Program-made: the position numbers and the translations under genes
Notes under the pieces: generated by a model
Database searches by the model: none
Seen by the model: only the letters and a program-made list of their open reading frames with translations
What the model was told of the DNA's origin: nothing
Part shown: positions 17,102 through 38,673 of the stretch, piece by piece
Layout of the letters: each line of letters begins with the position of its first letter
How positions within the stretch are numbered: position 1 is the first letter of the stretch
Source of the DNA: a virus
IMG/VR virus record: IMGVR_UViG_3300021957_003133
Coordinates: 32,001-96,000 of that record
DNA: 64,000 nucleotides
Reading direction: 5' to 3' (one strand)

Positions 17102-17108
17102 ATAAATA
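17102..17108 (+). promoter_or_regulatory. Putative late promoter ATAAATA, 5 nt before the ATG
   Basis: gATAAATAagcatATG. Confidence 0.55.
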
Positions 17109-17113
17109 AGCAT

Positions 17114-17770: not shown

Positions 17771-17792
17771 ATACATAATTTAGGAAAAGGAA

Positions 17793-19151: not shown

Positions 19152-19159
19152 GATTAAAG

Positions 19160-19166
19160 ATAAATA
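19160..19166 (+). promoter_or_regulatory. Putative late promoter ATAAATA
   Basis: Intergenic gATAAATAac upstream of a fibre gene. Confidence 0.5.
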
Positions 19167-19191
19167 ACATTATATAATTAGGTACTAACAA

Positions 19192-20640: not shown

Positions 20641-20666
20641 TTAAATTCATTTAGGAATATAGAAAC

Positions 20667-21630: not shown

Positions 21631-21658
21631 AAAAGCACCTTAAGGGGTGCTTTTTTTT
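21631..21658 (+). terminator. Rho-independent terminator ending the structural block
   Basis: AAAAGCACC-ttaagg-GGTGCTTTTTTTT. Confidence 0.85.
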
Positions 21659-21676: not shown

Positions 21677-21683
21677 ATAAATA
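21677..21683 (+). promoter_or_regulatory. Putative late promoter ATAAATA at the head of the tailoring operon
   Basis: gATAAATAgtagtATG directly after the terminator; no Shine-Dalgarno. Confidence 0.55.
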
Positions 21684-21688
21684 GTAGT

Positions 21689-22003
21689 ATGAGCGAAATC
21701 AATGAACTAGTAGAACAAATCAAGCAGGCAACAGATTTTCAGACTAATAAACAAATTTTACGTGAAAAGATTAAGACAGACTTACACGTAGCACACAACG
21801 GTGGTTTATTTTTAGTTTCTGTTGAACTGATAGCATTCCTTTCAACATGGAATGACGAAGAACTATTTGTAGAAGATACATACAACAATCCAATCCCCGT
21901 CAATAGACAAGAGTTTCTAACTAAATGCCAAGAACATTATCACTCAGTGATGAATACGTGGCATATTGAGTATGCAGAACTTAAACGACAACGCAAAGTC
22001 TAG
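21689..22003 (+). CDS. Hypothetical protein
   Basis: 104-aa ORF overlapping the next gene. Confidence 0.7.
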   Translation: MSEINELVEQIKQATDFQTNKQILREKIKTDLHVAHNGGLFLVSVELIAFLSTWNDEELFVEDTYNNPIPVNRQEFLTKCQEHYHSVMNTWHIEYAELKRQRKV

Positions 22004-22739
22004 AGGCGTTTTATTATTTGCCTACAACACTGACAGTGTTGACTACGTTAAAATCGCAGAACGTGCCGCACGATTGATTGAACACAATTTAAAATTACCT
22101 GTTACCATTATAACTGATATGCAGAGTCCTCAAACCAATGAGAGGATAGGGTATAAAAACGGTAGCCAATGGTTTAATGGTGATAGATATCGTGCTTATG
22201 AACTCAGTCCTTATGATGAAACTTTATTGTTAGACAGTGACTATTTGATATTTGATAACAGCTTGATTAAGATCTTAGACACAGTTGACGATTATAAAAT
22301 AATGTCAAACAACCAATCACCAACACATAGCCAAGACGGAGATATGGGTGCATTGAGTTTAGCATTTGTCTGGGCAACTGCGGTAGTATTTAAAAAAACT
22401 CAAAAAGCCAAACAGTTATTTGATTTAGTTGGTAGGATACAAAGGAACTACGAATACTACGTAAAGTTATACCACTTAAGAGAAAATAACTTCCGTAATG
22501 ATTATGCTTTTGCTATAGCCGATAACATTCTTTCAGGATATCACGCCAGTTCAGGCATACCTTGGTGTATGTTAACCATCGACCATGCAGTTAAAAAGAT
22601 TGAAACACAAAACAACAAACTGATAGTGAGAGAAGATAGCAAGGCATACATAATAACAAGACAGAATTTACACATCATGGATAAAGATTATCTATTAGGC
22701 GATAGCCATCAAAAACTGTTGGATGAAATATGTCTATAG
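21972..22739 (+). CDS. GT-A fold (GT8-like) glycosyltransferase
   Basis: LSPYDETLLLDSDY (DxD motif), RNDYAFAIA, late His; ATG at 21972. Confidence 0.6.
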   Translation: MQNLNDNAKSRGVLLFAYNTDSVDYVKIAERAARLIEHNLKLPVTIITDMQSPQTNERIGYKNGSQWFNGDRYRAYELSPYDETLLLDSDYLIFDNSLIKILDTVDDYKIMSNNQSPTHSQDGDMGALSLAFVWATAVVFKKTQKAKQLFDLVGRIQRNYEYYVKLYHLRENNFRNDYAFAIADNILSGYHASSGIPWCMLTIDHAVKKIETQNNKLIVREDSKAYIITRQNLHIMDKDYLLGDSHQKLLDEICL

Positions 22740-23581
22740 ATAGGGGATTTTTAACTATAGCACAGAACACAGACGGAGTAGACTATCTACGACTAGCATA
22801 CGCACAGGCCATGAGTATTAAGTTAACTATGCCTGGTAGTCAATATTGTGTTATTGTTGATCAAGACACTAACAAACAAATCACAGACGAGCAAAGACTA
22901 GTGTTTGATCATGTTCGAGTTCTAGACAAGGACTATGCCAAACAAGATCAGTGGAAGTTAGCTAACGAATGGCAAGTGTTTAATCTAAGTCCTTACAAAG
23001 AAACAATAAAAGTAGAAAGCGATATCTTGTTTACACGCAGTATAGAACATTGGTGGCACGCATTTAGGCTACGCGACATAGTGTTAAGTCTAGGTACACG
23101 AAATTTTAAAGGCAAACAAGCCAAGTCGAGAGTGTATAGAAAAATATTTGATGCCAATCAATTGCCGGACGTTTACAACGGATTGATGTACTTTCGTTAT
23201 AGCGAAACTGCTAGTGAATTTTTTGAGATAGCAGAACAAGTATTTAAACAATGGGAAACAGTTAAAGGAAATATATTAAAAGGGTTTAGTTATGAAGAAG
23301 CATCAACCGACGTAGTTTATGCCATCGCGGCAAAGACACTAGGAGTTGAACTATGTACATTGCCTGATTGTGATTTTATCAACTTTACTCATATGAAAAA
23401 TGCAATCAATGACTGGCCTGATGATAAATCTTGGACTGAAATGATAATGACAGAAGTAGATCTTCCAATGATACGTATTAACAATGTTAATCAATATCAT
23501 CCTGTACACTATCAAGATAAAAACTGGCTCACCGATGAAATAATTGAAAGGTATAAAGAATGTTTACACAACAAGAATTAG
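22730..23581 (+). CDS. GT-A fold (GT8-like) glycosyltransferase, paralog of the previous gene
   Basis: RGFLTIAQNTDGVDY; LSPYKETIKVESD; VYNGLMYF; STDVVYAIA; HMK; PVHY. Confidence 0.6.
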   Translation: MSIDRGFLTIAQNTDGVDYLRLAYAQAMSIKLTMPGSQYCVIVDQDTNKQITDEQRLVFDHVRVLDKDYAKQDQWKLANEWQVFNLSPYKETIKVESDILFTRSIEHWWHAFRLRDIVLSLGTRNFKGKQAKSRVYRKIFDANQLPDVYNGLMYFRYSETASEFFEIAEQVFKQWETVKGNILKGFSYEEASTDVVYAIAAKTLGVELCTLPDCDFINFTHMKNAINDWPDDKSWTEMIMTEVDLPMIRINNVNQYHPVHYQDKNWLTDEIIERYKECLHNKN

Positions 23582-23907
23582 ATCAAGCTATGAAACAATG
23601 GCCAGAGATCAATGAAGAGACCGTTGAATATAGATTACACTATGACCATACTGGTTTTATCTACATGCAGACGCTACAAAATCATCCAGAGAATACCCAG
23701 TATATTGTAGTAGACGAAACTGTTTATTTTGATACCCGAGACTATAAAATAGTTGACGGTAAGCCCAAAATCATTGACTTACCAACCGGATATCGTGTAC
23801 AATTAAAGAGTAGCAATAAAGGATATCAAGTGGTCAAAAATCATGCAGGTATCTTGTTGGAAAAAGAAACATACAACAATGTGGAATACTATGAAGAAAA
23901 TAGTTGA
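23560..23907 (+). CDS. Hypothetical protein
   Basis: 115-aa ORF overlapping both neighbours. Confidence 0.65.
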   Translation: MFTQQELDQAMKQWPEINEETVEYRLHYDHTGFIYMQTLQNHPENTQYIVVDETVYFDTRDYKIVDGKPKIIDLPTGYRVQLKSSNKGYQVVKNHAGILLEKETYNNVEYYEENS

Positions 23908-24784
23908 TATAGCTGATTTAGATTGTGTTTACCTCAGCTACGACGAACCTAAAAAAGAAGAGTTTTGGATTAAAATTTCCAATATGGTTCCTTGGGCAAC
24001 TCGTGTCGACGGAGTTAAAGGCAGTGATGCCGCACATAAAGCCGCGGCTGATTCTAGCACTACAGATAGATTTATTCTAATAGACGGTGATAACTTACCC
24101 GACACAGAGTTCTTTAATCAACAGTTGGTATTAGATGACAACAATCAAGATTGTGTATTCCGTTGGAAAGCCAAGAATAACATAAACGGATTACAGTACG
24201 GCAACGGTGGATTAAGTTGTTGGACAAAAGAGTTTATTTACAATATGAAAACTCACGAGAATACAGATGGTGATGAAGCCAATGATATAGAGTTTTGCTT
24301 TTATGAAAACTATTGGGCAATGCACGACTGCTATTCAACTACATATCCAAATGCTACACCTTTTCAGGCTTGGCGAGCAGGATTCCGTGAAGGTGTTAAG
24401 ATGTGTTTAGATAGAGGAACAAAACCTAGTCCAGCAGACTTTAAACAAAAAGCACATGACAGAAATTTGGATCACCTCAGCGTATGGCATAATGTAGGTC
24501 GAGATGTTGAAAATGGTATATGGGCTATGGCAGGTGCAAGACAAGGCACAGTAATGACTATGTTGTCAGACTGGGATCATCGAGAAGTACAATGGTTTGA
24601 CAACTTAGAAAAGATATGGAATGAAGTAGAGTCACAGGATGCTGAAACTATAGCACATGAGAACGGTACAGAACTCAGAAAATTAGAGTTACCTGCACTT
24701 AAATATGATAGCGAACAAAGTAAGTTTTTCAAACATCATTACAAAAGCGGATTTAACAATAAAGGAATAATGGAACGTGAGTAA
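23891..24784 (+). CDS. GT-A-like glycosyltransferase
   Basis: YLSYDEP, GVKGSDAAHKAAA, FILIDGDN (DxD), NGLQYGNGG, AWRAGFREGVK; likely start MKKIVDIAD. Confidence 0.5.
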   Translation: MKKIVDIADLDCVYLSYDEPKKEEFWIKISNMVPWATRVDGVKGSDAAHKAAADSSTTDRFILIDGDNLPDTEFFNQQLVLDDNNQDCVFRWKAKNNINGLQYGNGGLSCWTKEFIYNMKTHENTDGDEANDIEFCFYENYWAMHDCYSTTYPNATPFQAWRAGFREGVKMCLDRGTKPSPADFKQKAHDRNLDHLSVWHNVGRDVENGIWAMAGARQGTVMTMLSDWDHREVQWFDNLEKIWNEVESQDAETIAHENGTELRKLELPALKYDSEQSKFFKHHYKSGFNNKGIMERE

Positions 24785-26171
24785 AAGTAAATTTATGAGC
24801 TCTGCAGAAGAGATGAAGGAAAAATTAGGGCCTAGTCTCTGCCTGGCAAAATGGCAACAGGTTAGTTTACATTTACCTACTGGACTCAATAATAGCTGTT
24901 ATCATCCACCGTTGCATGAAATTGATGTAAAACCGCTAGAGTTCCATCCCAGTGCTTTGCATAATACTGTTCATAAGAAAGAGCAACGGAAAAAAATGCT
25001 AGAGGGTGAGAAACCTAAAGAGTGTAACTACTGTTGGACTATGGAAGATGCTGGACATCTGAGCGATAGACACTATCGTAGTGGTGAGCCCTGGGCCGCA
25101 GAACATTATGATAATATTGTTAACCAACCATGGGACAAAGATGTTACTCCAAGTTACGTGGAAGTAAATTTTAGTCACGGATGCAACCTTGCTTGTAGTT
25201 ATTGTAGTCCACAGTTTTCAACTGAATGGAATAAAGACATAGAACGCTGGGGTGCTTACCCGACAAAAAGTCCACATAATGACCCTATGCATTTTAAAGG
25301 ACGTCGACAACCTATACCAGTTAGAGAAAACAATCCTTATGTAGAAGCATTTTGGCAGTGGTGGCCCGAGCTATACCCTGAACTTAAACACTTCCGCATG
25401 ACAGGTGGTGAGCCTCTCATGGACAAAAACACACATAGAGTATTTGACTACATATTAAGTAGTCCTAAACCAGACTTACACGTTGATGTTACTAGTAATT
25501 TTTCAGTAGAGCCAAAACTATTTAATCGCTATATTGACAAGGTGCAACAACTTTGTACTGGAGAACGAATAGAACATTTTATGCAATATGTAAGTGTTGA
25601 CACTGGAATAGCTGAACACGCTGAATATATAAGACATGGGTTAAACTTTAAAAGATTAGAAAACAATGTGTATAGATATCTTGAAGAAGTGCCACATAGA
25701 AATAGTTTAACATTTATCTTAACCATGAACAATCTTAGCTTATTAGGACTACAAAGACAACTAGAATGGATCCTAGAACTAAGACGAGTATATAATACAG
25801 ACGGTTATCAAAAAATATGGTTTGATACACCGGTGTTAAGAACTCCGAGTTGGCAAAGTCTACAGATACTTCCAGAAAGCTATGTAGGTATATTAGAGAA
25901 TGTTATCAAATGGATGAAACTGCACAAGCTAGATGAAAACAGTGATAGATTTGACGGGTTCAAAGATTACGAAATACAGAGAATGGAACGTGATTGTGCT
26001 TGGATGAAGAAAGGTAAAAAACTAAATGAAAAATATTTACACGAAACCCGTGCAGACTTTTATAATTTTTTCAATGAATATGATAAGCGTAGGAAGATTG
26101 ACTTTTTGACAGTGTTTCCACAGATGAAAGAGTTCTGGCAGGAGTGCAAATGGCATGCCGAAAATAGCTAA
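24777..26171 (+). CDS. Radical SAM enzyme with N-terminal twitch/SPASM-like Fe-S domain (1 of 5)
   Basis: CNLACSYC, TGGEP; N-terminal CLAKW...SCYH...CNYC. Confidence 0.85.
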   Translation: MSKSKFMSSAEEMKEKLGPSLCLAKWQQVSLHLPTGLNNSCYHPPLHEIDVKPLEFHPSALHNTVHKKEQRKKMLEGEKPKECNYCWTMEDAGHLSDRHYRSGEPWAAEHYDNIVNQPWDKDVTPSYVEVNFSHGCNLACSYCSPQFSTEWNKDIERWGAYPTKSPHNDPMHFKGRRQPIPVRENNPYVEAFWQWWPELYPELKHFRMTGGEPLMDKNTHRVFDYILSSPKPDLHVDVTSNFSVEPKLFNRYIDKVQQLCTGERIEHFMQYVSVDTGIAEHAEYIRHGLNFKRLENNVYRYLEEVPHRNSLTFILTMNNLSLLGLQRQLEWILELRRVYNTDGYQKIWFDTPVLRTPSWQSLQILPESYVGILENVIKWMKLHKLDENSDRFDGFKDYEIQRMERDCAWMKKGKKLNEKYLHETRADFYNFFNEYDKRRKIDFLTVFPQMKEFWQECKWHAENS

Positions 26172-27510
26172 GGAAACAGACTTAGAGTATAAGCATAGAG
26201 TAATTGACATTAAAAGTGAAAGTTTCTGTGCGGCTAAATGGTATAACGCTACTATATGGTTGGGAAGTGGTATGACTACTAGTTGCCATCATCCGTTGCC
26301 ACACCCTATTGACATAGAAGCTATTAAAACTAATCCAAGTGCTTTACATAACACTGACAAGAAAAAACAAGAACGAGAACAGATGCAGAAAGGTGAACGC
26401 CCTAGTGGATGTGAGTACTGCTGGAAAGTAGAAGACATGGGAACTGATGCTATATCAGATAGGGTTTATAAAACAGTTATATATGAGGACAAAGAAAATG
26501 ATGAAGCTTTTAACACACCTTGTCAAGAAGATGTTAATCTTAAAACATTAGAGATTGCTTTTGATAGAACTTGTCAACTTGCTTGTAGTTATTGTAACCC
26601 TGCGTTTAGTAGTACTTGGGTTAAAGATGTTAAACGTAACGGAGCATATATTGATTTAGTTTCAGATGGTAGGAATCATTTTACTCACACGCACGACAGT
26701 AGTCAGTTGTATACTTTTAGTGAAACTAATCCTTACATTGAAGCATTCTTCAAGTGGTGGGAAACAGACTTACACAAAACATTAAATGAATTACGTATCA
26801 CTGGTGGCGAACCTCTTATGAGTGGACACACGTGGAAGTTGATTGAATGGTTTAAAACTAATCAAGGGAGATCAAAAACTAAATTAGCGATTAACAGTAA
26901 CTTGGCTATCTCTCAAGAAAAGCTCGCAGAGTTTATAGACAGTATACAATCACTTCCACACTTAGAAGTGTATACCAGTAATGAAAGTGTTGGAGCACAG
27001 TCAGAGTATATAAGAGATGGTATAAATTATCTCGAATGGTGTCAAAATATCGAAACCTTAATGGATTGTAGTTCTGTAAAAATACTACATGTGATGTTCA
27101 CTATTAACAGTCTTTGTTTAGACAGCATAACTGATCTATTAGACTATCTTATGAAACTAAAACACCGGCATGGTAAGTTCAGTCTGAGTTTTAGCTTAAA
27201 TATATTAAGATTCCCTAGTTTTCAAAGTGCTACAGTACTACCTGATGACATTAGAAATCAGTATAAAGAAAAATTACAGTCTTGGTTAGATCTAAATAAA
27301 GATGATCTAACATTACACGAGTACGAAGTAAATCATGTAGAAAGATTAGTTGATTATTTAGACATAGTTAAAACTCCGCATGCAGGTGCTGATGAAATAA
27401 CAACTCTACAGAACGATTTTAAACAGTTTTACAAACAATATGATGAACGTAGAGGAAAGAACTTTACAGAAACATTTCCTAGATTAACAGAATGGTATAA
27501 TACATTATGA
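26155..27510 (+). CDS. Radical SAM enzyme with N-terminal twitch domain (2 of 5)
   Basis: CQLACSYC, TGGEP; CAAKW...SCHH...CEYC. Confidence 0.85.
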   Translation: MPKIAKETDLEYKHRVIDIKSESFCAAKWYNATIWLGSGMTTSCHHPLPHPIDIEAIKTNPSALHNTDKKKQEREQMQKGERPSGCEYCWKVEDMGTDAISDRVYKTVIYEDKENDEAFNTPCQEDVNLKTLEIAFDRTCQLACSYCNPAFSSTWVKDVKRNGAYIDLVSDGRNHFTHTHDSSQLYTFSETNPYIEAFFKWWETDLHKTLNELRITGGEPLMSGHTWKLIEWFKTNQGRSKTKLAINSNLAISQEKLAEFIDSIQSLPHLEVYTSNESVGAQSEYIRDGINYLEWCQNIETLMDCSSVKILHVMFTINSLCLDSITDLLDYLMKLKHRHGKFSLSFSLNILRFPSFQSATVLPDDIRNQYKEKLQSWLDLNKDDLTLHEYEVNHVERLVDYLDIVKTPHAGADEITTLQNDFKQFYKQYDERRGKNFTETFPRLTEWYNTL

Positions 27511-27674
27511 GTGAAGAAATAAGCACACAACGTATTGCAATAAGTACAGACGGCGTTGAAATAGACAGCAGTCAAGGTGACTTATTGTCAGAAGCAGTCC
27601 TACTTGGCACCATTGTTATAGTAGTAGCTGTATTATACATAGGTAAGAAATGGATAGACAGGAAGTTTAAATGA
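27507..27674 (+). CDS. 55-aa single-TM membrane protein (not in the ORF track)
   Basis: MSEEISTQRIAISTDGVEIDSSQGDLLSEAVLLGTIVIVVAVLYIGKKWIDRKFK; ATGA overlaps at both ends. Confidence 0.7.
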   Translation: MSEEISTQRIAISTDGVEIDSSQGDLLSEAVLLGTIVIVVAVLYIGKKWIDRKFK

Positions 27675-28990
27675 GTGACAAAGAAACAGACGACTACTAT
27701 AAAAATCACGAGTATCACGATCGTAAACCTGTGTACATTGATGAAAAAGATTTAAGGACAGATCAATTAGATAGACTTACAAAGAGTGAAACATTCTGTA
27801 TGATCCCTTGGATACACATGCATGCATTCCCCAATGGGCAAGCATTTCCTTGCTGTCTTGCTGACAGTGATCATCCTATAGGCGACTTACATAAGAATAC
27901 TATTCGAGAAGTATGGAATGACACAGCATACAAAACAATGCGTAAGAATATGCTTGAAGAAAAGAGCTGTAAAGAATGTACTAAATGTTATGAACAAGAA
28001 GATATGGGTTTTGTTAGTATGCGTAATTCATCAAACAAATCTTTTGGACATAATATTGGAATAGTGGATGACACCAAACCAGATGGTACCTTTGATGATT
28101 TCAAACTACGTTACTATGATATTAGATTTAGTAACTTATGCAATATGAGTTGTCGTACCTGTGGTGGTTGGTTTTCTAGTTCGTGGCATGACGAAGAAAC
28201 AGCATTATATGGTAAGCGTGAGTATCCTAAATTTATGTTTGCTGGCAAAGACAAAGAAGATATGTGGAATCAATTACAAGAACACATTCCTTATCTAGAA
28301 CAAGTATACTTTGCTGGTGGTGAACCTTTGATAATGGAAGAACACTATCGCTTGTTAGATGAACTAGAAAGACAAGAGTTATTCAATGTTAGACTACAGT
28401 ATAATACTAACTTTAGTAAGCTAAAACTAAAAACAAAACATGTGTTTGACTATTGGCAGAGATTTAAAAATGTGTCAGTGGGTGCTAGTTTAGATGCCAT
28501 GGGAGCTAGAGCAGAATACATGCGTAAAGGCACAGTGTGGGCAGAAACTGTTAGTAATAGAGAACGGATGTTACAAGAATGTCCTAACACAGACTTTTAT
28601 GTTAGTAGTACCGTTAGCATTTACAACGCACTACATGTCATGGACTTCCATCGTGACTGGGTTGAACGTGGATTAATCAAAGCACAAGACTGGAACATCA
28701 ATATATTACAGGGTCCTAACAGAGACAGGATTGATGTGCTACCAAAGATTTATAAAGAACAAGTAAAAGAAAAGATACTAGAACATATTGAATGGTTACG
28801 CCCACAGGATCATTTAAATCGTGCTGTTGTTGGTTATGAAAGCATATTGACATTTATGGAAAATCAAGACCAACAAAACTTGTTACAAGAGTTCTTAGAA
28901 GTAAATGATAGACACGACGACTATAGAAAAGAACAGTTTGAAACGGTGTTTCCTGAATACAAGGAGTTAAGAACATATGTCTCTACCTAA
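27671..28990 (+). CDS. Radical SAM enzyme with N-terminal twitch domain (3 of 5)
   Basis: CNMSCRTC, AGGEP; CMIPW...PCC...CTKC. Confidence 0.88.
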   Translation: MSDKETDDYYKNHEYHDRKPVYIDEKDLRTDQLDRLTKSETFCMIPWIHMHAFPNGQAFPCCLADSDHPIGDLHKNTIREVWNDTAYKTMRKNMLEEKSCKECTKCYEQEDMGFVSMRNSSNKSFGHNIGIVDDTKPDGTFDDFKLRYYDIRFSNLCNMSCRTCGGWFSSSWHDEETALYGKREYPKFMFAGKDKEDMWNQLQEHIPYLEQVYFAGGEPLIMEEHYRLLDELERQELFNVRLQYNTNFSKLKLKTKHVFDYWQRFKNVSVGASLDAMGARAEYMRKGTVWAETVSNRERMLQECPNTDFYVSSTVSIYNALHVMDFHRDWVERGLIKAQDWNINILQGPNRDRIDVLPKIYKEQVKEKILEHIEWLRPQDHLNRAVVGYESILTFMENQDQQNLLQEFLEVNDRHDDYRKEQFETVFPEYKELRTYVST

Positions 28991-30194: not shown

Positions 30195-30678
30195 TATAGC
30201 ATTAGGATGTAGCCATACCTACGGTGTAGGAGTAGAAAAAGATGAAGCTTGGCCTAATCTACTTGGGCTAGTAAATTATGGAGTTCCTGGGTGTAGTACT
30301 GATTTAATTTGTCGCACCCTGCCTAAGATTTTAGAGAAAGAACAACCAGACATTGTGTATATACTTTGGCCTGATTGGACAAGATTTGAATATCGTAAAG
30401 ATGGAGAATGGATTCAATCACATCCAACAGACAGAAACAGAATTGAATTTATGGAAAGCCACCCAGAAGAATGGCTACGAGAAAATTTTAAACAGCAGGT
30501 AGCACGAGTAAACGAATTGTGTAAAGGTATAAAAGTTAACGCAATGACATTAGATGATTTGATCCCTTTCATTGACAATGCTGATATGTGGCCGCTCAGT
30601 AAATTAGGGCACCACTATGCTCCTGAATGGCACCATTGGGTGGCAGAGATATTTGAGAAACTGAATGAAGCAACCTAA
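30187..30678 (+). CDS. SGNH/GDSL-fold protein
   Basis: GCSHTYG block I, NYGVPGCS block II, C-terminal GHHY. Confidence 0.6.
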   Translation: MSNIALGCSHTYGVGVEKDEAWPNLLGLVNYGVPGCSTDLICRTLPKILEKEQPDIVYILWPDWTRFEYRKDGEWIQSHPTDRNRIEFMESHPEEWLRENFKQQVARVNELCKGIKVNAMTLDDLIPFIDNADMWPLSKLGHHYAPEWHHWVAEIFEKLNEAT

Positions 30679-31969
30679 GAATAGACCAGAAACGCTGTGT
30701 ATGGCTCCGTGGACTCATACTTACCTATCGCCACAGACTGAACGTAGAATGTGCTGTGCTAGTCGTGAGGATGCACAATCATTTGAGCAGTATATAGATA
30801 CCAAAGCTGGCACAGGCAAATACCAACCAATCACTTTAGAAAAACACTGGAATTCAGACCATATGAAATCAGTGCGTAAACGCATGATGGCTGGAGAAAC
30901 CTTAAAGGAATGTGCCGTATGTAACGATAAGCTGTTGAATACTGATGTTTACCGTAGTTATTTCAACCGAATGTTTAGCGATAAGTATGATAGTATATGG
31001 GACACTACAGATGATACGGGCTACACCACAACAAAGCCTGTAAGCTGGGATTATAGATTCAGCAATCTCTGTAACTTTAAGTGTCGCACGTGCGGTGACA
31101 TGTTGTCAAGTGCATGGGAGTCAGAGCAAAGACAGCATAACACTATCAATTGGGATAATCCTAGAAACAATTGGATGAAACCCGACATTAGGAAACAGAT
31201 ATCTGAGTTTCAGGACAATCAAATTGAGAAAGAGTTCGCAGATGCTGTAGAATCTCATCAAATTGAGGAAGTATATTGGGTTGGTGGTGAGCCATTGATG
31301 TACGATCAACACTGGAGATACATGAAACGTATCGTTGATTTAGGAGATGGGAAAAATGTTTACGCTAGATACAACACAAATCTTAGTCGCATCAATTATC
31401 GCGGTATCAACCTCTATACTGATATTCTATCTAGGCTACAGGATTGGCAAATATGTGCAAGCCTTGATGGTACAGGAAGAATTGGAGAATATATCAGGAC
31501 AGGTCTCAACTATCAAACGTGGGTTGAAAACTTTAAGGAAGGTCTTAAGGGAGTTACTAACGATCGTCAAATGAGAATAGACTTTACACTTACCTTACCG
31601 GGTATGTTTGAGGTTAAAGAGATGGACAAGCTAGCTTATAATTTAGATAGTGAGATATTGGCCAAAGTAATATTCAGTTTCACACCAGACATCATTATGA
31701 GTCCGTTAGCACTGCCAAGGAAACTATTAGAAGAGTGGATTGATGATATATTAGAATCCAAGCTATGTAAACCTGTACTGATAGATATGCTTACCCAACT
31801 AAAAACAAGACCTACGTTCGAAGAACAATGGCCTGATACCTATCAAGAAAGTCTTGCAAAAGGCAAGCGTCGTGTGTTACAATTAGAGAGTATACGTAAA
31901 GATGAATTTACTTTAGCGGATATTTTAAAATCAAGGAAAGAAGTATATGAGTGGTATCAATCAATCTAA
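30665..31969 (+). CDS. Radical SAM enzyme with N-terminal twitch domain (5 of 5)
   Basis: CNFKCRTC, VGGEP; CMAPW...MCC...CAVC. Confidence 0.88.
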   Translation: MKQPKNRPETLCMAPWTHTYLSPQTERRMCCASREDAQSFEQYIDTKAGTGKYQPITLEKHWNSDHMKSVRKRMMAGETLKECAVCNDKLLNTDVYRSYFNRMFSDKYDSIWDTTDDTGYTTTKPVSWDYRFSNLCNFKCRTCGDMLSSAWESEQRQHNTINWDNPRNNWMKPDIRKQISEFQDNQIEKEFADAVESHQIEEVYWVGGEPLMYDQHWRYMKRIVDLGDGKNVYARYNTNLSRINYRGINLYTDILSRLQDWQICASLDGTGRIGEYIRTGLNYQTWVENFKEGLKGVTNDRQMRIDFTLTLPGMFEVKEMDKLAYNLDSEILAKVIFSFTPDIIMSPLALPRKLLEEWIDDILESKLCKPVLIDMLTQLKTRPTFEEQWPDTYQESLAKGKRRVLQLESIRKDEFTLADILKSRKEVYEWYQSI

Positions 31970-33029
31970 GGTTTCAGTAACACTAAGAAATCCTTTAGTT
32001 CGCGATGATCAAATAACATATGACATCATCCTGAATGATACCCAATTGGCTAAAGACTGGGTTGATGCTCTTAAACAGATATTACAAAACAACAATCTAT
32101 TAGAAAAGAACTTTTGTTTCTTAGGGTTTCCAGATACACAACGTAATATTAAATATCTCAGTAATGAACTTAAACAAGCTGTCGACACTATCAATCAATA
32201 CTTCGACGATTACGAGATTACAGAAACGTACACACCTGAAACACTACGCAACGGCTTAGATCCTAATCAAGATCTTATGAATCAATTACATAATCATTTT
32301 GAAGTACTGCAAGGAACTGTAGAGAATCTTAGTGATTACTATAGACGTGCTGACCACGAAACAAAGTATGCCATAAGACAGTTAAACATTATCTGTCACG
32401 AGTTAGAAAGTTTGATGTTAAGCTTACGTAAAAAAGTTAACGCTCCTGATTGGGTACGTAGCAGTCAAATAACTACATTTTTACAGTGTGAAAGATTCGA
32501 GTTAACACATGAACATAGACAAGGATTCTTAACCAACGGATATGATAGACAGTTTGGCGGTGTTTATATGCACTGGACACAGATAGGTAAAACACTGTTT
32601 GAAGTATTCAATGATGAAGGCGCTCCAGAACTAACAGATGCAGTATGTGACGCTATAACACACCTACAATACTATTCAGGTGAGTTTGATGTTGAATGGG
32701 GTAACACTGTTAACAGAGGAGACAGCACAGTGCCTTGGCATAATCAGGCACAAGATAAATTTGAACAATGGTTACGAGATAATCAGTTGGATCCTACGAA
32801 TACTCAATTGAGTTTAGGATATTTGCCGTTGGGCAATATTGATCTTACTACGTTTGGCACAGACGATCCCAATGAGATAAGAGAAATACTAGGACGTTAC
32901 CTTGATATCTATAAAATTAAAGTTGACGGAGTGTCGAATACTTTCGAATACTGCTGGACTGATGATGATTACAAGCAACAACAAATTAATAGGATGATTC
33001 CAGGATATGATTTTAGTAGCAGGGGGTGA
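31947..33029 (+). CDS. Hypothetical protein (His/Glu-rich helical motifs)
   Basis: 360-aa coupled ORF; NQLHNHFE and LNIICHELE motifs. Confidence 0.7.
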   Translation: MSGINQSKVSVTLRNPLVRDDQITYDIILNDTQLAKDWVDALKQILQNNNLLEKNFCFLGFPDTQRNIKYLSNELKQAVDTINQYFDDYEITETYTPETLRNGLDPNQDLMNQLHNHFEVLQGTVENLSDYYRRADHETKYAIRQLNIICHELESLMLSLRKKVNAPDWVRSSQITTFLQCERFELTHEHRQGFLTNGYDRQFGGVYMHWTQIGKTLFEVFNDEGAPELTDAVCDAITHLQYYSGEFDVEWGNTVNRGDSTVPWHNQAQDKFEQWLRDNQLDPTNTQLSLGYLPLGNIDLTTFGTDDPNEIREILGRYLDIYKIKVDGVSNTFEYCWTDDDYKQQQINRMIPGYDFSSRG

Positions 33030-33825
33030 TAGTTTTGTTTGGGGCAGTGAGTTAGGAGACTGCAACCATGATCATGTTGAGACTCTTGGTAGTTCTAGTG
33101 GACATAGTAGTCTTACATTTCCAGCTATTTTAGGACAAGACTACGAATACCAATGTTGTGCTTATCCAGGAAACGGTAATGATACTATTGCTAGAAATGT
33201 TATTATAGCATGCGAAAAAAATAAAGAACAAAATCAAGCACAAGTAGTTTCAGTAACATGGACTTTCCCAGGGAGATACGAATTTCATGTAGAAACTAGT
33301 CAAGGTGCTAAATGGGAAACTATTAATTCATGGACAGTAGGTAAGAAATATACTGAAGAATCTGATCAACATTTAAATGAATTTGTCGAACAATTTAACG
33401 AACATGCTGAAAGTCTGGGTATAGTAAAATTTGCTAAATCTTATTTTGCTAATGTTGGACATTTAGAGTATTGGGAAACTTATACTGCTATTAAAGAAAT
33501 AGTATATTTGCAAAATTATCTCAAAGCAAATAATATTCAGTATCTATTTACATGTGCAGATGTTGGGTTTCTTAATAATCACACAATAAAAGTCGCAGAT
33601 GATACTATACGTTCGCTGTATAATCAAATTGATTTTGACCGTTGGTACTTGTTTCCTAAAGGTAGCAGAGCAAACGAAACCACAGTACCAAGAGGTTTTT
33701 ACCAATGGGCATTGGAAAATAAGTATAGTATAGGCCCGATGAATCACCCGCTAGAGAAAGCACATCGAGATGCCGCTCTATTAATAAAGGATAAATTTAA
33801 TGAATTGGTTCAAAAAAATAATTAA
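33007..33825 (+). CDS. SGNH/GDSL-fold protein
   Basis: GGDSFVWG, AYPGNGN, WTFPGR, NHPLEKAH. Confidence 0.6.
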   Translation: MILVAGGDSFVWGSELGDCNHDHVETLGSSSGHSSLTFPAILGQDYEYQCCAYPGNGNDTIARNVIIACEKNKEQNQAQVVSVTWTFPGRYEFHVETSQGAKWETINSWTVGKKYTEESDQHLNEFVEQFNEHAESLGIVKFAKSYFANVGHLEYWETYTAIKEIVYLQNYLKANNIQYLFTCADVGFLNNHTIKVADDTIRSLYNQIDFDRWYLFPKGSRANETTVPRGFYQWALENKYSIGPMNHPLEKAHRDAALLIKDKFNELVQKNN

Positions 33826-33901
33826 TCGAATAAAGATGGAACTTCGATATCGTAAAAAGTTAAAAGAACTTAAAAAACGAGATCCGTTTATCTATAAATG
33901 A
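33800..33901 (+). CDS. 33-aa highly basic peptide (not in the ORF track)
   Basis: MNWFKKIINRIKMELRYRKKLKELKKRDPFIYK; fills the gap exactly and has an ATGA overlap with 33898. Confidence 0.6.
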   Translation: MNWFKKIINRIKMELRYRKKLKELKKRDPFIYK

Positions 33902-34533
33902 AATTACTAACAGTAGGAGATAGTTTTACTTACGGTGAAGAGCTTGTAGATATAAACAATGCTTGGCCTTACCTACTAGGTAAACAGATAGACTACGAAG
34001 TTACTAATCTAGGAAGTCCAGGATGTAGTAATGCCCGTATGATTCGCAATGTTATAGAAAATGCAGACAAGCATGATTTAATTATCATTGCCTGGAGTCA
34101 TTTTGCTAGATTAGAAGTATCAGATGAGAATGGTACTTATGATCTTTGGCCAGGTGGGTCGGGAGTATTCTTTACTGGAGAGTTGAAGTATAGGAAAGAA
34201 CTAATAAACTATGTAAACAGACACCACAATGATGAATATTTGTATAATCAATACACAACTAATATTGTGCTAGTACAAAAATATTTAGAATCTAAAGGCA
34301 AGCGTTACATCATGATGGATACGTTTGGAAATCATCAAGACAAACAAAGACAGTCTAATGGTTTAATCAGTCAAGTAAACGATCAGTATTATATTGGGTG
34401 GCCAACAGAAAGCATGATGGAATGGACCTATAAAACACCACAAGGTCCAGCAGGACATTTTTTAGAAGAAGGACATCAAAAAGTAGCAGAAAAAATCAAT
34501 GAATATATTAGGAATATCGGCTGGGTTTCATGA
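33898..34533 (+). CDS. SGNH/GDSL-fold protein
   Basis: GDSFTYG, NLGSPGCSN, WSHFAR, GHFLEEGH. Confidence 0.65.
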   Translation: MKLLTVGDSFTYGEELVDINNAWPYLLGKQIDYEVTNLGSPGCSNARMIRNVIENADKHDLIIIAWSHFARLEVSDENGTYDLWPGGSGVFFTGELKYRKELINYVNRHHNDEYLYNQYTTNIVLVQKYLESKGKRYIMMDTFGNHQDKQRQSNGLISQVNDQYYIGWPTESMMEWTYKTPQGPAGHFLEEGHQKVAEKINEYIRNIGWVS

Positions 34534-35989
34534 TGCTGGCATGAGTTGTGTGAGTGATGGTGAAATTTTATTTGCCGCACACAGCGAACGTTACAGTAGA
34601 CAAAAACATGATAGCAAACTGTGCAGTGAAATGCTGTTTGATTGTTTGTCACGAACCGGCTTACCTGATGTTATTGCCTATTACGAAAGACCCTGGGTTA
34701 AAAAAACTAGACAACTGTATGCAGGGCAATGGAACTCTTTATGGTCAGATTGGTCAGTGCGTAGCATGATCAATGAGATTGATATAGAAGGGGCTTTAAA
34801 ACATGTACCCATAAAAACTTATAATCATCACCTGTCACATGCGGCCGCTGGCTTTCAAACATCACCATACAAAGACAGCACAGTTGTAGTCATTGATGCC
34901 ATTGGGGAATGGGACACTATTAGTATATGGGACGCAAGATACGATAGTCAAGGGCAAGCAACATATAAAAAATTATGGGGCCAAAAGTATCCACATTCAA
35001 TTGGGTTAATGTATTCAGCGTTTACTAAAGAAGTTGGACTACGTCCTTTAGATGAAGAATACATTTTAATGGGAATGGCCGCATACGGGCAAAGTCATTT
35101 TAAAGACGCATTTAAAACAGTGTTGTTAGATGAACCCACCAGTTTAACATTTAGACATAATCTACATCTTGGGTTACCAGATGGTGGTGAAGGTGGCTAT
35201 GGAGAAAACTTTGATGTAGCCGCTGGGGCACAAGAACTGGTAGAAGAACTTATCAATGAAGTAATACGCATATCTAAAAAATTAGGTATAAGCAAGAACT
35301 TAACTTATATGGGTGGTGTGGCTCTAAATTGTTCAGCCAATAGAGACCTAGGACAGTATTATAATAATATATGGATTATGCCTAATCCAGGAGATGCTGG
35401 CTCAAGTTTAGGTGCCGCGGCATTAACATACGGAAAACAATTAAATTGGAAAGATGCTTATTTAGGATATGATATCAAAGGTGAATACCCAGTTAAAGAT
35501 TTGTTAACAGAATTATTAGAAAACAAGATAGTAGGTGTTGCTAACGGACCTGCAGAGTTTGGTCCTAGAGCTTTAGGCAACAGAAGTTTACTAGCAGATC
35601 CAAGAGGGCCAGAAATAAAAGATCAAGTAAACGAAATTAAACGTAGACAAAAGTTTAGACCATTTGCTCCTGTTATCTTAGAAGAATACGCCAACGAGTA
35701 TTTTCAAATGCCTTCGGGTTTTCCTACTAGCGATTATATGCAGGTAACAGCCTTATGCAATTTTCCTAAACAATTCCCAGCAATTATCCATCACGACGGA
35801 ACTAGTCGTGTACAAACAGTACCTAAAAATTCACGCAGTGGTATAAGACAATTACTAGAAGCTTGGCATGTATGGACAGGATGTCCTATGTTACTTAATA
35901 CTAGCCTTAATATTAGAGGAGAACCAATGGTAAACAGTCGCAGTGACGCAGAAAGATTCCAAGAACATTATGGGATTCGTGTGTTATGA
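34499..35989 (+). CDS. Carbamoyltransferase (NodU/CmcH/TobZ family)
   Basis: HD, ERYSRQKH, HHLSHAA, DAIGE, GGVALNC, PGDAG, EFGPRALGNRS, FRPFAP, LLNTSLN. Confidence 0.92.
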   Translation: MNILGISAGFHDAGMSCVSDGEILFAAHSERYSRQKHDSKLCSEMLFDCLSRTGLPDVIAYYERPWVKKTRQLYAGQWNSLWSDWSVRSMINEIDIEGALKHVPIKTYNHHLSHAAAGFQTSPYKDSTVVVIDAIGEWDTISIWDARYDSQGQATYKKLWGQKYPHSIGLMYSAFTKEVGLRPLDEEYILMGMAAYGQSHFKDAFKTVLLDEPTSLTFRHNLHLGLPDGGEGGYGENFDVAAGAQELVEELINEVIRISKKLGISKNLTYMGGVALNCSANRDLGQYYNNIWIMPNPGDAGSSLGAAALTYGKQLNWKDAYLGYDIKGEYPVKDLLTELLENKIVGVANGPAEFGPRALGNRSLLADPRGPEIKDQVNEIKRRQKFRPFAPVILEEYANEYFQMPSGFPTSDYMQVTALCNFPKQFPAIIHHDGTSRVQTVPKNSRSGIRQLLEAWHVWTGCPMLLNTSLNIRGEPMVNSRSDAERFQEHYGIRVL

Positions 35990-36408
35990 AAATATTAATA
36001 TGCGGATTACCAGGAAGTGGTAAAACAACTTTAGCAAAACCATTTGCGGAACTGTTAGGTGGTGTCTGGATAAATGCTGATAGTATTAGAAAACAATATG
36101 ATGATTGGGACTTCAGTGATGAGGGCAGATTACGTCAAGCTGAACGAATGCGTTTACTAGCAGACGGTGTTGAACTAGCAGGTAAAGTTGCTGTGTGTGA
36201 TTTTGTTTGCCCTACAGAACAAACACGACAAGCACTTGATGCTGATTATGTAGTATGGATGGATACTATTAAGGAAGGACGTTTTAATGATACTAATTTA
36301 ATATTTAAAAATCCTGATGTTGTCGACTATCGTGTAAGTGCTTGGTTTGACGACACTGATAAGGAATTAGTTAAAGTAGTATCAAACTATATAGAGAAAA
36401 GTAAATAA
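35986..36408 (+). CDS. Adenylylsulfate-kinase-like P-loop kinase
   Basis: GLPGSGKTT, NADSIR, DFSDEGRLRQ, FVCP; short CysC-like protein. Confidence 0.7.
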   Translation: MKILICGLPGSGKTTLAKPFAELLGGVWINADSIRKQYDDWDFSDEGRLRQAERMRLLADGVELAGKVAVCDFVCPTEQTRQALDADYVVWMDTIKEGRFNDTNLIFKNPDVVDYRVSAWFDDTDKELVKVVSNYIEKSK

Positions 36409-37700
36409 TGTACGACATATTCATCATGGATATGGGCGGTCACGACGACAACGTTAAGAGTCTTGTACAACGTTTCCCTCACGCTAAGGTGGTAAGATAC
36501 TACGATAATCATTTAGACACTGTAAAACGCTGTATTTCGCGTTGTAGGACCACATATGCTTGGGTAATTTCAAGTTGTTGCGACTATGCTAACTTTGATT
36601 TTGACTATCGACCTATACATCATCAAGCCTATCAAATACACTGTTGGGCTAGTGGCAATCAACAGTTCGGCGACACATTTCTAATACCAAAAGATGAATT
36701 CTTAAAGCAACAAGATATAGAACTGTTAGAATGGTATAAAGACATCAATTGGCACCAAGATGGTGTTCCAAGACTAGCTTGGCCTGTGTTAGAGTGTGAA
36801 ACAGAAGATATCACCCAGCATTTAAAAGACTGCGAGTTCGATAGCAGTTATGTATGGGTCAACCAACGCACAGACTATGATCCTTCACTGTGGAAAGATA
36901 GATGTTTTTACAGTTTTAACAAATCCGGTGATGTATCGTTAGCACCGCGTGAAATTCAGACACATTTAAGCACACAAATCTATGATTATCCATACATTAT
37001 CAAGCAAAAAGAAGCGTTTTTACCTTCTAAAACGTTGGATATTATCTACATCAGCAATGGCGAGATTGAAAGTGATCGTTGGTATGATCATGCAGTATCA
37101 ACATCGGGTAAAACAATCAAAAGAGTGCAAGATGTTAACGGAAGAGATCTTGCGATCAAACAGGCGGCCTATTTGAGTACAACACCATGGTTCTTTACTG
37201 TGTGGGCTAAGTTAGAAGTCGACACAGATTTTGATTGGCAATGGCAACCAGATTGTCTACAACAACCAAAACATTATATATTCCATGCACGTAATCCTGT
37301 TAACGGATTACAGTATGGGCACATGGCAATGGTAGCCTATAATCGTGAGTTAGTACTAGAAACACGTAAGTGGGGATTAGATTTTACCATGAGTAAATTA
37401 CACGGTGTTGTTCCTATTGTAAGCGGAACTGCTCACTATAATCGTGATCCATTGATGACTTGGCGTACAGCATTTCGTGAAGTAGTTAAATTAAAACAAG
37501 ACAGTGAAACAGGCAACATTGAAAGTCTACATAGACTACAGGTTTGGTTAACTAAAGCTGTTGGTGAAAATGCAGAATGGAGTCTACGTGGAGCAAAAGA
37601 TGCTGTTGAATATTATGAAAGCGTTAACGGTATTTTTAATAAGTTAATGTTATCGTTTGATTGGGATTGGTTAAAAAGTTATTACGACAAGCGTTACTAA
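36408..37700 (+). CDS. Two-domain GT-A-like protein; C-terminal domain paralogous to 23891
   Basis: YISNGE, RVQDVNG, NPVNGLQYG, TWRTAFREVVK. Confidence 0.5.
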   Translation: MYDIFIMDMGGHDDNVKSLVQRFPHAKVVRYYDNHLDTVKRCISRCRTTYAWVISSCCDYANFDFDYRPIHHQAYQIHCWASGNQQFGDTFLIPKDEFLKQQDIELLEWYKDINWHQDGVPRLAWPVLECETEDITQHLKDCEFDSSYVWVNQRTDYDPSLWKDRCFYSFNKSGDVSLAPREIQTHLSTQIYDYPYIIKQKEAFLPSKTLDIIYISNGEIESDRWYDHAVSTSGKTIKRVQDVNGRDLAIKQAAYLSTTPWFFTVWAKLEVDTDFDWQWQPDCLQQPKHYIFHARNPVNGLQYGHMAMVAYNRELVLETRKWGLDFTMSKLHGVVPIVSGTAHYNRDPLMTWRTAFREVVKLKQDSETGNIESLHRLQVWLTKAVGENAEWSLRGAKDAVEYYESVNGIFNKLMLSFDWDWLKSYYDKRY

Positions 37701-37704
37701 ATCG

Positions 37705-38673
37705 CTACTTCCATTCGTGTTCTTTCCACAGTGAAGGATGTTGTTGATACCATTCATAATACTTTACTAGACCCTGTTCAAAATTAACTTGGGGATTGTA
37801 ACCTAATTCTTTCTTAGCTAGTTCTGAACTAAGTCTACCACGTTTAGGAAATGCTAGGTCACGTTGATTTATTTTAATAGTTCCTTTACCTGCGATAGAG
37901 ATAGCAAGTTCGGCGGCCATTTTCAGTGTCCATAGTTTATCGCTTGAACGTGTTATGTTGTATATTTTATTTCGAGCTTGTTCACTGGTACTAGCTAGTG
38001 CGATTCCTTTTGCTGTGTCTTCTACATAGGTAAAGTCTAAGACTTCATCAGCACCATTTACCTGTAAGCATTCTCCACGCATTGCTTGAGTTATAAATTT
38101 ACCAACCACACGATCCTCAACGTCCCATTCACCGTAGACAGCACTTGGACGTACAATGGTATAATCAAAATGCTTGCTATAATCTTCTACTAACTTTTCT
38201 CCAGCATACTTTAAGATAGCATAACTGCCACGAGGGTCGCAGACTGCTGTTTCTGTTACATCATTGTCGAAGTCACCATAGACCATTGAGCTTGATATAT
38301 AAACAAATTTTTTAATTGTATATCTCTTACTGGCTTCTAGTAAATTCATTAGGCCCGATGACATCACATCACTTGCTAGTACAGGATTTTGATTTGCTAT
38401 CTTTTGTCTTGGAAAACTTGCTAGGTGTATGACTACATCTGGATTGAATTTCTTAAACACAGTATTAACAGCAGGGTCTCTGATATCTCCGATGTTTTGT
38501 TCACAGTCAACTCGTTTAAGTCTGTGATTGGCAAGATAAACTATTTCCTGCTCTGGAATAATTCCATACCCAGTCAAGCTGTCTAAGATCGAACATTGAT
38601 GTCCTTGTTGTTCAAGTTCTCGGACTACATTGTGTCCTATAAACCCAGCACCACCTGTTAACAGTATTCTCAA
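37705..38673 (-). CDS. NAD-dependent NDP-sugar epimerase/dehydratase (extended SDR)
   Basis: TGGAGFIG, HLAS, SSSMVYG, YAILK (YxxxK), DFTYVED. Confidence 0.9.
   Translation of the reverse strand: MRILLTGGAGFIGHNVVRELEQQGHQCSILDSLTGYGIIPEQEIVYLANHRLKRVDCEQNIGDIRDPAVNTVFKKFNPDVVIHLASFPRQKIANQNPVLASDVMSSGLMNLLEASKRYTIKKFVYISSSMVYGDFDNDVTETAVCDPRGSYAILKYAGEKLVEDYSKHFDYTIVRPSAVYGEWDVEDRVVGKFITQAMRGECLQVNGADEVLDFTYVEDTAKGIALASTSEQARNKIYNITRSSDKLWTLKMAAELAISIAGKGTIKINQRDLAFPKRGRLSSELAKKELGYNPQVNFEQGLVKYYEWYQQHPSLWKEHEWK

Follow-up and report, generated by a model that had tools for sequence, protein, structure and literature searches.

A block of 17 open reading frames (ORFs) lies directly behind the tail-fibre genes in a 64,000-nucleotide stretch of viral DNA, bases 32001-96000 of the 115,466-bp IMG/VR record IMGVR_UViG_3300021957_003133 (genome G000); this whole stretch is called the window in the following. 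The block occupies positions 21689-37700 of the + strand (~16 kb, ORF calls) and is, on balance, probably a cassette for the tailoring of a sugar or glycan. The original prediction had already read it as machinery for building and tailoring sugars, and this is supported by the families of the encoded proteins, namely a GT-A fold, SGNH proteins, a carbamoyltransferase of the NodU/TobZ type and radical S-adenosylmethionine (SAM) proteins with a BtrN-like twitch domain. The description as a complete assembly line could not be upheld, as neither a gene for the synthesis of nucleotide diphosphate (NDP) sugars nor an acceptor was identified and no known reaction can be assigned to the five radical SAM proteins or to the protein u360.

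The record comes from an uncultured aquatic giant T4-like phage. Because its 115,466 bp are rated by CheckV as 33% complete, the full phage genome should comprise ~350 kb; two near-complete relatives, G001 (92% complete) and G002 (100%), have 320 and 354 kb. No match to near-identical DNA was found in the phage collection searched. Glycosylation encoded by viruses is known, and to our knowledge radical SAM arrays coupled to glycosyltransferases have been described in no virus.

Radical SAM proteins, glycosyltransferase-like proteins and accessory enzymes

The five radical SAM proteins rS1 to rS5 (Table 1) all lie above the curated whole-protein cut-off of 170 bits of the NCBIfam family NF033640 (N_Twi_rSAM), with scores of 292-405 bits, and a genome-wide search agrees. 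Five paralogous twitch radical SAM enzymes had been proposed, and this holds with one correction, as the twitch domain is located N-terminal to the core. The CX3CX2C motif is present in 5/5 proteins, and four Cys residues of the N-terminal twitch are invariant (C8, C27, C73, and C76 in the numbering of rS4). The Pfam SPASM match precedes the Radical_SAM match, which places the twitch at the N-terminus and reverses the usual order. A profile of rS4 relatives aligns with its residues 6-78 to residues 167-237 of BtrN, an alignment (E 0.0089) restricted to the twitch, whereas its radical SAM core is closest to SkfB (E 1e-11), followed by viperin, BlsE, MoaA, and GDGT-MAS. Because the N-terminal segment aligns to the BtrN twitch and the core follows it, rS1-rS5 are, judged by their sequences, twitch enzymes with reversed domain order.

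BtrN, the butirosin 2-deoxy-scyllo-inosamine dehydrogenase and archetypal twitch radical SAM enzyme, likewise has just one domain for an auxiliary cluster, with four Cys. Its twitch is C-terminal to the core, whereas that of rS1-rS5 is N-terminal (5/5); the phage proteins are also ~150 aa longer, have a C-terminal helical region and are found in arrays of 5-10 paralogues, and the weak likeness is limited to the twitch. Twitch radical SAM enzymes such as BtrN oxidise sugar-like rings, and by analogy an oxidation or epimerisation of a hydroxylated ring is the likely role of rS1-rS5. The family NF033640 shares the CX3CX2C motif and the four N-terminal Cys with them and is merely catalogued, without a published reaction, substrate or structure; a literature search for N-terminal twitch/SPASM radical SAMs, NF033640 or a Bdellovibrio twitch radical SAM found no paper.

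Among themselves the five paralogues are only 19-29% identical, compared to 47-89% between each of them and its own orthologue in related phages. A quick maximum-likelihood tree places each paralogue with its orthologues in a distinct clade (SH-aLRT 98-100), and sequences from bacteria or metagenome-assembled genomes (MAGs) lie between these clades, so that phage and bacterial N_Twi copies interleave. The family is large, with at least 7543 metagenome proteins matching rS3 at E <= 1e-10. Above the cut-off, 8-9 N_Twi copies are found per complete relative and 6-9 in each of the giant phages, and none in 14 model genomes (0/14). A sixth N_Twi protein of G000 (510 aa) is encoded within the - strand region G000:C1:17069-24031 (L137:570-7532), 8-15 kb before the start of the window. 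Its gene lies between an Mre11-like (gp47-type) and a Rad50-like (gp46-type) gene, and genes for a 209-aa short-chain dehydrogenase and a 367-aa canonical radical SAM protein with C-terminal SPASM domain follow. In some relatives, radical SAM proteins of 792-842 aa match both rS3 and rS4 and resemble two fused N_Twi units.

Four GT-A-like proteins had been proposed in addition. For GT3 a GT-A fold is supported by the structure model, and GT4 is its paralogue; GT1 and GT2 can be called GT8-like only weakly, judging from their sequences. The best PDB match of the GT3 model in Foldseek is the capsid glycosyltransferase A64R of PBCV-1 (2p6w, E 1.2e-3, prob 1.0). In the VIA comparison the top 7 rows are glycosyltransferases (Z 6.7-8.4, which is moderate, with 137-224 residues aligned), among them BcsA with Z 8.4 and heparosan/hyaluronan synthases with Z 6.7-7.6, and further glycosyltransferases and nucleotidyltransferases of the GT-A fold come next. 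Further matches are TarP/TarS and SunS and, among viral models (BFVD), a glycosyltransferase of phage Che8 (E 5.6e-4). The prediction could have failed if the glycosyltransferase-like ORFs lacked such a fold, and the GT3 model speaks against this. The motif D65-G66-D67-N68 (DGDN) is invariant in 15 GT3 orthologues with a mean identity of 77%, and ceases to be so when GT4 and homologues from bacteria join the comparison. The reading frame of GT3 is open from 23843 onward; a start near 23891 (MKKIVDIADLD...) is favoured by orthologues and tblastn alignments, and the first 16 codons are probably untranslated.

GT1 and GT2 are related to each other according to hhalign (97% probability, E 1.5e-11). 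No match to GT1 was found in Pfam or the PDB, including a search with its profile against the PDB. The nearest named language-model clusters of GT2 are Nucleotid_trans (PF03407) and Glyco_transf_8 (PF01501), both at 0.95-0.96. GT4 has no Pfam match.

The three SGNH proteins, the carbamoyltransferase, the APS-kinase-like protein and the convergent epimerase-family gene of the short-chain dehydrogenase/reductase (SDR) type, which had been named from the sequence alone, were all confirmed. Sequence comparison confirmed SG1, SG2, and SG3 as three SGNH paralogues. Residues G7, S9, G13, and H187 are invariant over 24 sequences, and the joint profile matches the GDSL protein 4rsh (E 5e-6). SG1 is found in only ~6 related loci and has GCS in place of GDS. 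By its sequence, the carbamoyltransferase CT belongs unambiguously to its family; it is 45.8% identical to the homologue of Ralstonia phage RsoM2USA and, with 140 bits, stays under the NodU equivalog cut-off of 1000 bits.

The kinase-like protein kin covers only positions 5-91 of the 152 positions of the APS_kinase profile, and with 24.4 bits it remains below the cut-off of the NCBIfam model apsK (138.7 bits). The profile of its orthologues has APS kinases as best PDB relatives (E 1e-9). In 9-10 relatives the kinase is fused to a nucleotidyltransferase-like domain with HxGH and ISxTxxR motifs (NMNAT 2qjt, E 0.0024), with fusion proteins of 263-288 aa in L029, L030, L032, L035, L036, L040, L041, L042, and L055, whereas the copy in the window consists of the kinase only. 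This fusion hints at a nucleotide-activated intermediate. The decoration of Nod factors, with carbamoyl (NodU), acetyl (NodL) and sulfate groups (NodPQ/NodH), has the same trio as is found here with CT, the acyl-handling SGNH proteins and the APS-kinase-like protein; a sulfotransferase, as in Nod-factor decoration, was not found here. NodU and TobZ carbamoylate sugar hydroxyls.

The protein u360 is modelled as a cyclophilin-like beta-barrel which is split by a four-helix insert bearing the invariant residues H115, E119, H151, and E154. In the VIA comparison it resembles cyclophilins (Z 7-9, moderate, ~140 residues aligned) and, over residues 62-165, helix bundles. Foldseek returned no match for u360, and its ESM Atlas model is poor and without a usable neighbour. 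With the bacterial Asp/Asn-hydroxylase-containing neighbours, hhalign reached only 65% probability. Finally, no family match was found for u104.

Transcription signals, conservation and spread

The overlapping and abutting gene block behind the fibre genes, starting from an ATAAATA motif, was found as predicted. Its gene junctions overlap by 1-38 nt, the sole gap being 72 nt at 33826-33897, and the SDR gene on the opposite strand converges on it, ending 4 nt past the last block gene. Upstream, the hairpin and T-run at the position of the terminator (Table 1) are kept in 26/31 relatives. ATAAATA is rarer in the window than expected (11 observed vs 32 expected). In the first 38 kb (1-38 kb) it occurs 4 times on the + strand, once shortly ahead of the block and otherwise shortly ahead of three genes of the fibre module; further boxes lie ahead of genes of the deazaguanine cluster. 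Inside the block neither a second ATAAATA box nor a strong terminator is present. In the relatives the box varies between GATAAATAG, GATAATTAC and TATAAT-like sequences, at a constant ~6 nt from the ATG. The block is a transcription unit of its own, because terminator and box precede it and the distance is kept in the relatives. Its expression is probably late, a timing inferred from these signals. The late position that had been proposed thus stands as far as a late-promoter-like start of the kind seen at the fibre genes is concerned, whereas a virion target would follow only from the adjacency and a box that varies.

At both u104 (21677-21689, +) and a 218-aa gene (17102-17114, +), the ATAAATA box is followed after 5 nt by the ATG, with no Shine-Dalgarno sequence in between, and the messages of these two genes may be leaderless or nearly so.

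Among 47 IMG/VR loci carrying an rS3 orthologue, about 36-44 retain the gene order fibC-p316-u104-GT1-GT2-u115-GT3-rS1-rS2-rS3-rS4-rS5-u360, so that an independent assortment of the genes across relatives, which would have spoken against a functional block, was not observed. SG1, SG2/3, CT, and the kinase vary among the relatives, and L049 and L054 are without them. Because the core order is kept and the SGNH/CT/kinase part is variable, the pattern is, at the level of gene content, that of a fixed scaffold to which decorations are optionally added. The 55-aa ORF between rS2 and rS3, which has an acidic Ser/Thr-rich N-terminus and a KD19 value of 2.45, is absent from the relatives, in which rS2 directly adjoins rS3 or a 220-aa SGNH-like gene intervenes. 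By this comparison it is not part of the conserved core, and as a candidate for a hidden precursor peptide it was rejected for the same lack of conservation.

In prokaryote genomes 341 stretches were matched. The closest of them (L057-L064, L071) are probably mis-binned phage contigs in MAGs, and the others belong mostly to Bdellovibrionota. The tandem arrays of Bdellovibrionota comprise 2-10 N_Twi genes, often together with CT, GDSL, GT2, GT3-like, and u360-like genes. Compared to the phage block, the bacterial arrays (Bdellovibrionota and other MAGs) additionally hold radical SAM genes with C-terminal SPASM domain, Asp/Asn-hydroxylase-like genes, 2-oxoglutarate oxygenases and B12 radical SAM genes, and unlike the phage block they are without homologues of the block genes GT1 and GT2. 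Three MAG contigs labelled Rickettsiales, Parcubacteria, and Bdellovibrionia (L111, L112, and L121) carry 7-10 N_Twi genes within ~20 kb, interleaved with C-terminal-SPASM radical SAM, Asp/Asn-hydroxylase-like and methyltransferase-like genes and a family, possibly of PLP type, without Pfam match. Small radical SAM cassettes, with or without CT and SGNH genes and without GT1-3, are also present in the cultured phages RsoM2USA (Ralstonia) and K566/K567 (Vibrio); the cassette goes unmentioned in the paper on RsoM2USA.

Flanking genes

Downstream of the block, genes on the opposite strand encode the SDR, a MazG-like protein, a canonical ThyA, a dihydrofolate reductase (DHFR), MoxR-like and VWA-like proteins, MetK, radical SAM proteins and a deazaguanine cluster. 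The SDR had been counted as a partner of the block. It is the last gene of the opposite-strand MazG-ThyA-DHFR transcription unit and hence belongs to that unit, and the adjacency GT4-SDR(-)-ThyA(-) is kept in L010, L049, L054, and L057. Further along, metK and the B12 radical SAM gene were identified as predicted; the third gene named there, a DegT-like enzyme, was not, since the 362-aa ORF at 60638-61726 has neither a Pfam aminotransferase nor a PDB match. Positions 53175-56522 (-), among early or auxiliary genes, encode a protein of the subtilase family that has 1115 aa and contains a His-rich region. Upstream of the fibre genes, the 4525-aa FG-GAP protein contains 6 Cys in all and no excess of N-x-S/T.

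Table 1. Positions of the block genes, their signals and flanking genes in the window.
Feature	Position	Strand	Description
Baseplate wedge subunit	3-1835		Upstream structural gene
FG-GAP-repeat protein, 4525 aa	1865-15442	+	Single ORF, preceded by the baseplate wedge gene and followed by the fibre genes
Several fibre-like proteins	15467-21617		Upstream of the block; the last is p316 (316 aa)
Intrinsic terminator	21631-21654	+	10-bp stem and T-run; marks the end of the fibre module, behind p316
ATAAATA box	21677-21683	+	T4-late-promoter-like; 5 nt ahead of the first ATG of the block
u104	21689-22003	+	First operon gene; conserved 104-aa protein; 38 of 47 related loci, 26-97% identity
GT1	21966-22739	+	GT8-like candidate, paralogue of GT2; D90/D92 (DSD) invariant in orthologues
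GT2	22730-23581	+	GT8/nucleotide-diphospho-sugar-transferase-like candidate; profile matches glycogenin, E 0.1, residues 3-111
u115	23560-23907	+	Conserved 115-aa protein; 37 loci; only a weak match to a PHROG of unknown function
GT3	23891-24784	+	Glycosyltransferase-like, modelled GT-A fold (GT2-like); best conserved non-radical-SAM gene; AF2 pLDDT 92
rS1	24777-26171	+	N_Twi radical SAM; NF033640 307.7 bits; own orthologue clade, SH-aLRT 100
rS2	26155-27510	+	N_Twi radical SAM; NF033640 305.3 bits; clade includes the copy of Ralstonia phage RsoM2USA
55-aa ORF	27507-27674	+	Unlisted; one membrane helix; fills the apparent rS2/rS3 gap; ATGA overlaps on both sides
rS3	27671-28990	+	N_Twi radical SAM; NF033640 405.4 bits
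rS4	28977-30194	+	N_Twi radical SAM; NF033640 339.5 bits
SG1	30187-30678	+	Short SGNH-like paralogue; variable accessory gene; hhalign to SG3 98.4%
rS5	30665-31969	+	N_Twi radical SAM; NF033640 291.7 bits; sister is a Bdellovibrionales MAG copy
u360	31947-33029	+	Conserved core protein; AF2 pLDDT 89; 40 loci
SG2	33007-33825	+	SGNH/GDSL-like; GDSF block I; hhalign to SG3 99.9%
SG3	33898-34533	+	SGNH/GDSL-like (DUF6071); PF19547 32 bits, cut-off 27
CT	34499-35989	+	NodU/TobZ/CmcH-type carbamoyltransferase; Carbam_trans_C 169 bits (cut-off 27), Carbam_trans_N 130 bits (cut-off 24)
kin	35986-36408	+	APS-kinase-like P-loop kinase, 140 aa; Pfam APS_kinase 30.2 bits, cut-off 21.1
GT4	36408-37700	+	Two-domain protein, C-terminal half GT3-like; BLASTP vs GT3 27% identity, E 4e-14
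SDR	37705-38673	-	Extended-SDR NDP-sugar epimerase/dehydratase family; PF01370 146.8 bits; below every NCBIfam equivalog cut-off
MetK	50399-51481	-	SAM synthetase; all three S-AdoMet_synt domains present; outside the operon, context only
B12 radical SAM	57428-59308	-	Family assignment confirmed

Possible products and acceptors

We propose, tentatively, that the block is a soluble late unit which acts in the cytoplasm, builds a short glycan from nucleotide sugars of the host and then edits it, with fibre or other virion proteins as the most likely acceptors. That the acceptor is a virion protein is possible and, taken by itself, decidedly uncertain. No membrane segment or signal-peptide-like stretch was found in the enzymes of the block, the sole membrane helix being that of the non-conserved 55-aa ORF. 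Priming transferases (Bac_transf PF02397, WecA/MraY-type PF00953) and the flippase Wzx (PF01943) were not detected above the cut-off in G000, G001, and G002, and no NTP_transferase for NDP-sugar synthesis was found in the same three genomes. Because of these absences, it is likely that host nucleotide sugars are used and that the acceptor is cytoplasmic. The virion fibre proteins are its most likely identity because they are made next door from the same promoter type.

In the proposed mechanism all block enzymes would be soluble and would work in the host cytoplasm during infection, on a glycan made from host nucleotide sugars. The GT8-like proteins GT1 and GT2 and the GT2-like proteins GT3 and GT4, with a GT-A fold modelled for GT3, would attach sugars to the acceptor, most likely at least one fibre or other virion protein whose gene directly precedes the block. 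Each of the five, presumably old, N_Twi paralogues would then cleave SAM to form a 5'-deoxyadenosyl radical and abstract hydrogen from one specific sugar C-H. The fully Cys-ligated, BtrN-like auxiliary cluster could accept the electron, which would yield a keto sugar; alternatively, return of the hydrogen would yield an epimer. In this way common sugars would be converted to rare ones after their attachment. Among the accessory proteins, the SGNH proteins would add or remove O-acyl groups, CT would add O-carbamoyl groups via carbamoyl-AMP and the APS-kinase-like protein would phosphorylate or activate a group, and MetK would supply SAM to the radical SAM enzymes. A further-reaching version, which we regard as unlikely as it stands, is that N-terminal-twitch radical SAM proteins constitute a new class of glycan editors acting on protein-attached sugars by radical oxidation or epimerisation at the polymer level. 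This would allow a phage that lacks its own nucleotide-sugar pathway to furnish its fibres with rare sugars derived from common host sugars, as part of a toolkit shared with the predatory Bdellovibrionota.

Chloroviruses and mycobacteriophages glycosylate virion proteins with glycosyltransferases of their own (Freeman et al. 2023, PMC10527164, as cited in PMC12619734). The systems of PBCV-1 (A64R and its partners), Che8-type phages and the fibril clusters of giant viruses comprise, like GT3, soluble virus-encoded GT-A enzymes in the cytoplasm. They differ from the block in that no radical SAM protein, carbamoyltransferase or SGNH protein has been reported for them.

Several findings weigh against this proposal or limit it. 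ATAAATA is not kept as such in most relatives, where the box often resembles an ordinary -10 element. Contigs of four marine metatranscriptomes of one study span the whole block at 90-99% identity, which speaks for the proposal, yet they are compatible with DNA carry-over in the RNA libraries and demonstrate presence rather than start site, strand or timing. N-x-S/T is not enriched over composition in the virion proteins (z 0.19 for the giant protein, -0.31 for fibC and -0.08 for p316), with only a mild excess in fibA (z 1.8) and fibB (z 2.05). GT1, GT2, and GT3 match no Pfam glycosyltransferase family, GT3 matching no Pfam or NCBIfam family even at E 0.5, and GT4 is without a DXD motif, the DGD of GT3 being aligned to WAK. 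No sugar enzyme is nearer to the radical SAM core than viperin and SkfB (E 1e-11), which modifies a peptide, and we know of no N_Twi radical SAM protein with a known reaction. N_Twi genes also occur outside the block in the same genome, including the copy flanked by the gp47-like and gp46-like recombination genes. The cassettes of RsoM2USA and K566, which lack GT1-3, are not located beside homologues of fibre genes, and the adjacency of block and fibre genes could be inherited T4-like synteny.

Among the alternatives, the product could be a soluble small molecule, such as an edited nucleotide-linked sugar, a nucleoside or an aminoglycoside-like metabolite directed against the host, its defences or competitors, with no glycan bound to a polymer. 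Nearly all families of the block bind nucleotides (GT-A, the APS-kinase-like protein, the adenylate-using carbamoyltransferase and a radical SAM core near viperin, MoaA and BlsE), the HxGH nucleotidyltransferase-like fusion of the kinase points in the same direction, and neither an acceptor protein nor a carrier was found in the block. With relatives of BtrN and TobZ, the set also resembles the clusters for aminoglycoside and nucleoside antibiotics. A scaffold-forming enzyme, such as a cyclitol synthase or an aminotransferase, is however missing from the block, four glycosyltransferase-like and five radical SAM proteins are many for one small product, and a late-type start directly behind the fibre genes suits virion assembly better, which leaves this explanation unlikely, even though a radical SAM, an aminotransferase and an amidinotransferase gene are listed together as "antibiotic synthesis genes" in a cyanophage paper (PMC12801897). 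Less likely again is a radical SAM action on proteins or peptides, in which fibres or a small precursor would be epimerised, cross-linked or hardened and the glycosyltransferase-like proteins would glycosylate the same protein. This would agree with most characterised SPASM/twitch radical SAM enzymes, which modify peptides or proteins, with SkfB as the best solved relative of the core and with the Asp/Asn beta-hydroxylase-like proteins and canonical radical SAM-SPASM genes of the bacterial arrays. On the other hand, no conserved precursor peptide was seen beside the radical SAM genes in a non-exhaustive search of small ORFs, the only hidden ORF (55 aa) being absent from the relatives. The fibre proteins are nearly Cys-free (0-0.3%), so that thioether links are unlikely, no recognition domain for ribosomally synthesised and post-translationally modified peptides was seen, as the N-terminus is the twitch itself, and the CT and SGNH partners suggest hydroxyl-rich substrates.

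A hypermodification of the phage DNA, with a sugar extended or tailored on a modified base such as a deazaguanine provided by the genes at 47.9-64 kb, is considered very unlikely. It would fit a deazaguanine cluster at a distance of 10-25 kb, in which the B12 radical SAM protein and MetK were confirmed and whose genes also have ATAAATA boxes, the grouping of the SDR with MazG, ThyA, and DHFR, and the placement of diverse glycans on DNA by glycosyltransferases of viruses (Pyle et al. 2024, as cited in PMC12619734). Against it, G000, G001, and G002 have one Thymidylat_synt gene each and no second copy of the dCMP/dUMP hydroxymethylase type, and the ThyA of the window passes the thymidylate synthase equivalog NF002497 with 379 bits (cut-off 327); because of this single canonical ThyA, a hydroxymethyl-pyrimidine handle is disfavoured. 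In addition, in ~36 contigs the block goes together with the fibre module and not with DNA-modification genes, and a glycan requiring at least nine enzymes on packaged DNA is without precedent. A search for TGT/DpdA (PF01702) gave no match in any genome including G000, with a model too narrow to show co-occurrence. Hardly more can be said for a remodelling of the host envelope (lipopolysaccharide, a glycolipid or another lipid), for instance to block superinfection, which is the classical reading of lipopolysaccharide-like genes in large cyanophages and which we rate as scarcely probable. The best structural matches of GT3 are membrane-associated GT2 enzymes (BcsA, HAS, ArnC, and polyprenyl mannosyltransferase), the bacterial arrays lie near genes for a patatin, a GDSL "lipase", an acyl-AMP ligase and a hydroxylase of the LpxO/OlsC family, and PagP is found near the K566 cassette. 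Yet the cluster proteins lack membrane segments and signal-peptide-like stretches, the priming transferases and the flippase are absent, and a late start leaves little time for a change of the cell surface. Both the host surface and the glycosylation of hydroxymethyl-pyrimidine DNA, which had been offered as alternatives to the virion, are disfavoured on these grounds.

The glycan-tailoring reading with its tentative virion acceptor can be followed up in cultured carriers of small versions of the cassette, which exist with Ralstonia phage RsoM2USA and Vibrio phages K566/K567. The identity of the product would give a chemistry to a large and very abundant family of radical SAM proteins and could explain the parallel arrays in Bdellovibrionota. 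An answer would also test whether giant phages of aquatic habitats decorate their receptor-binding fibres, which bears on their host range and their escape from recognition.

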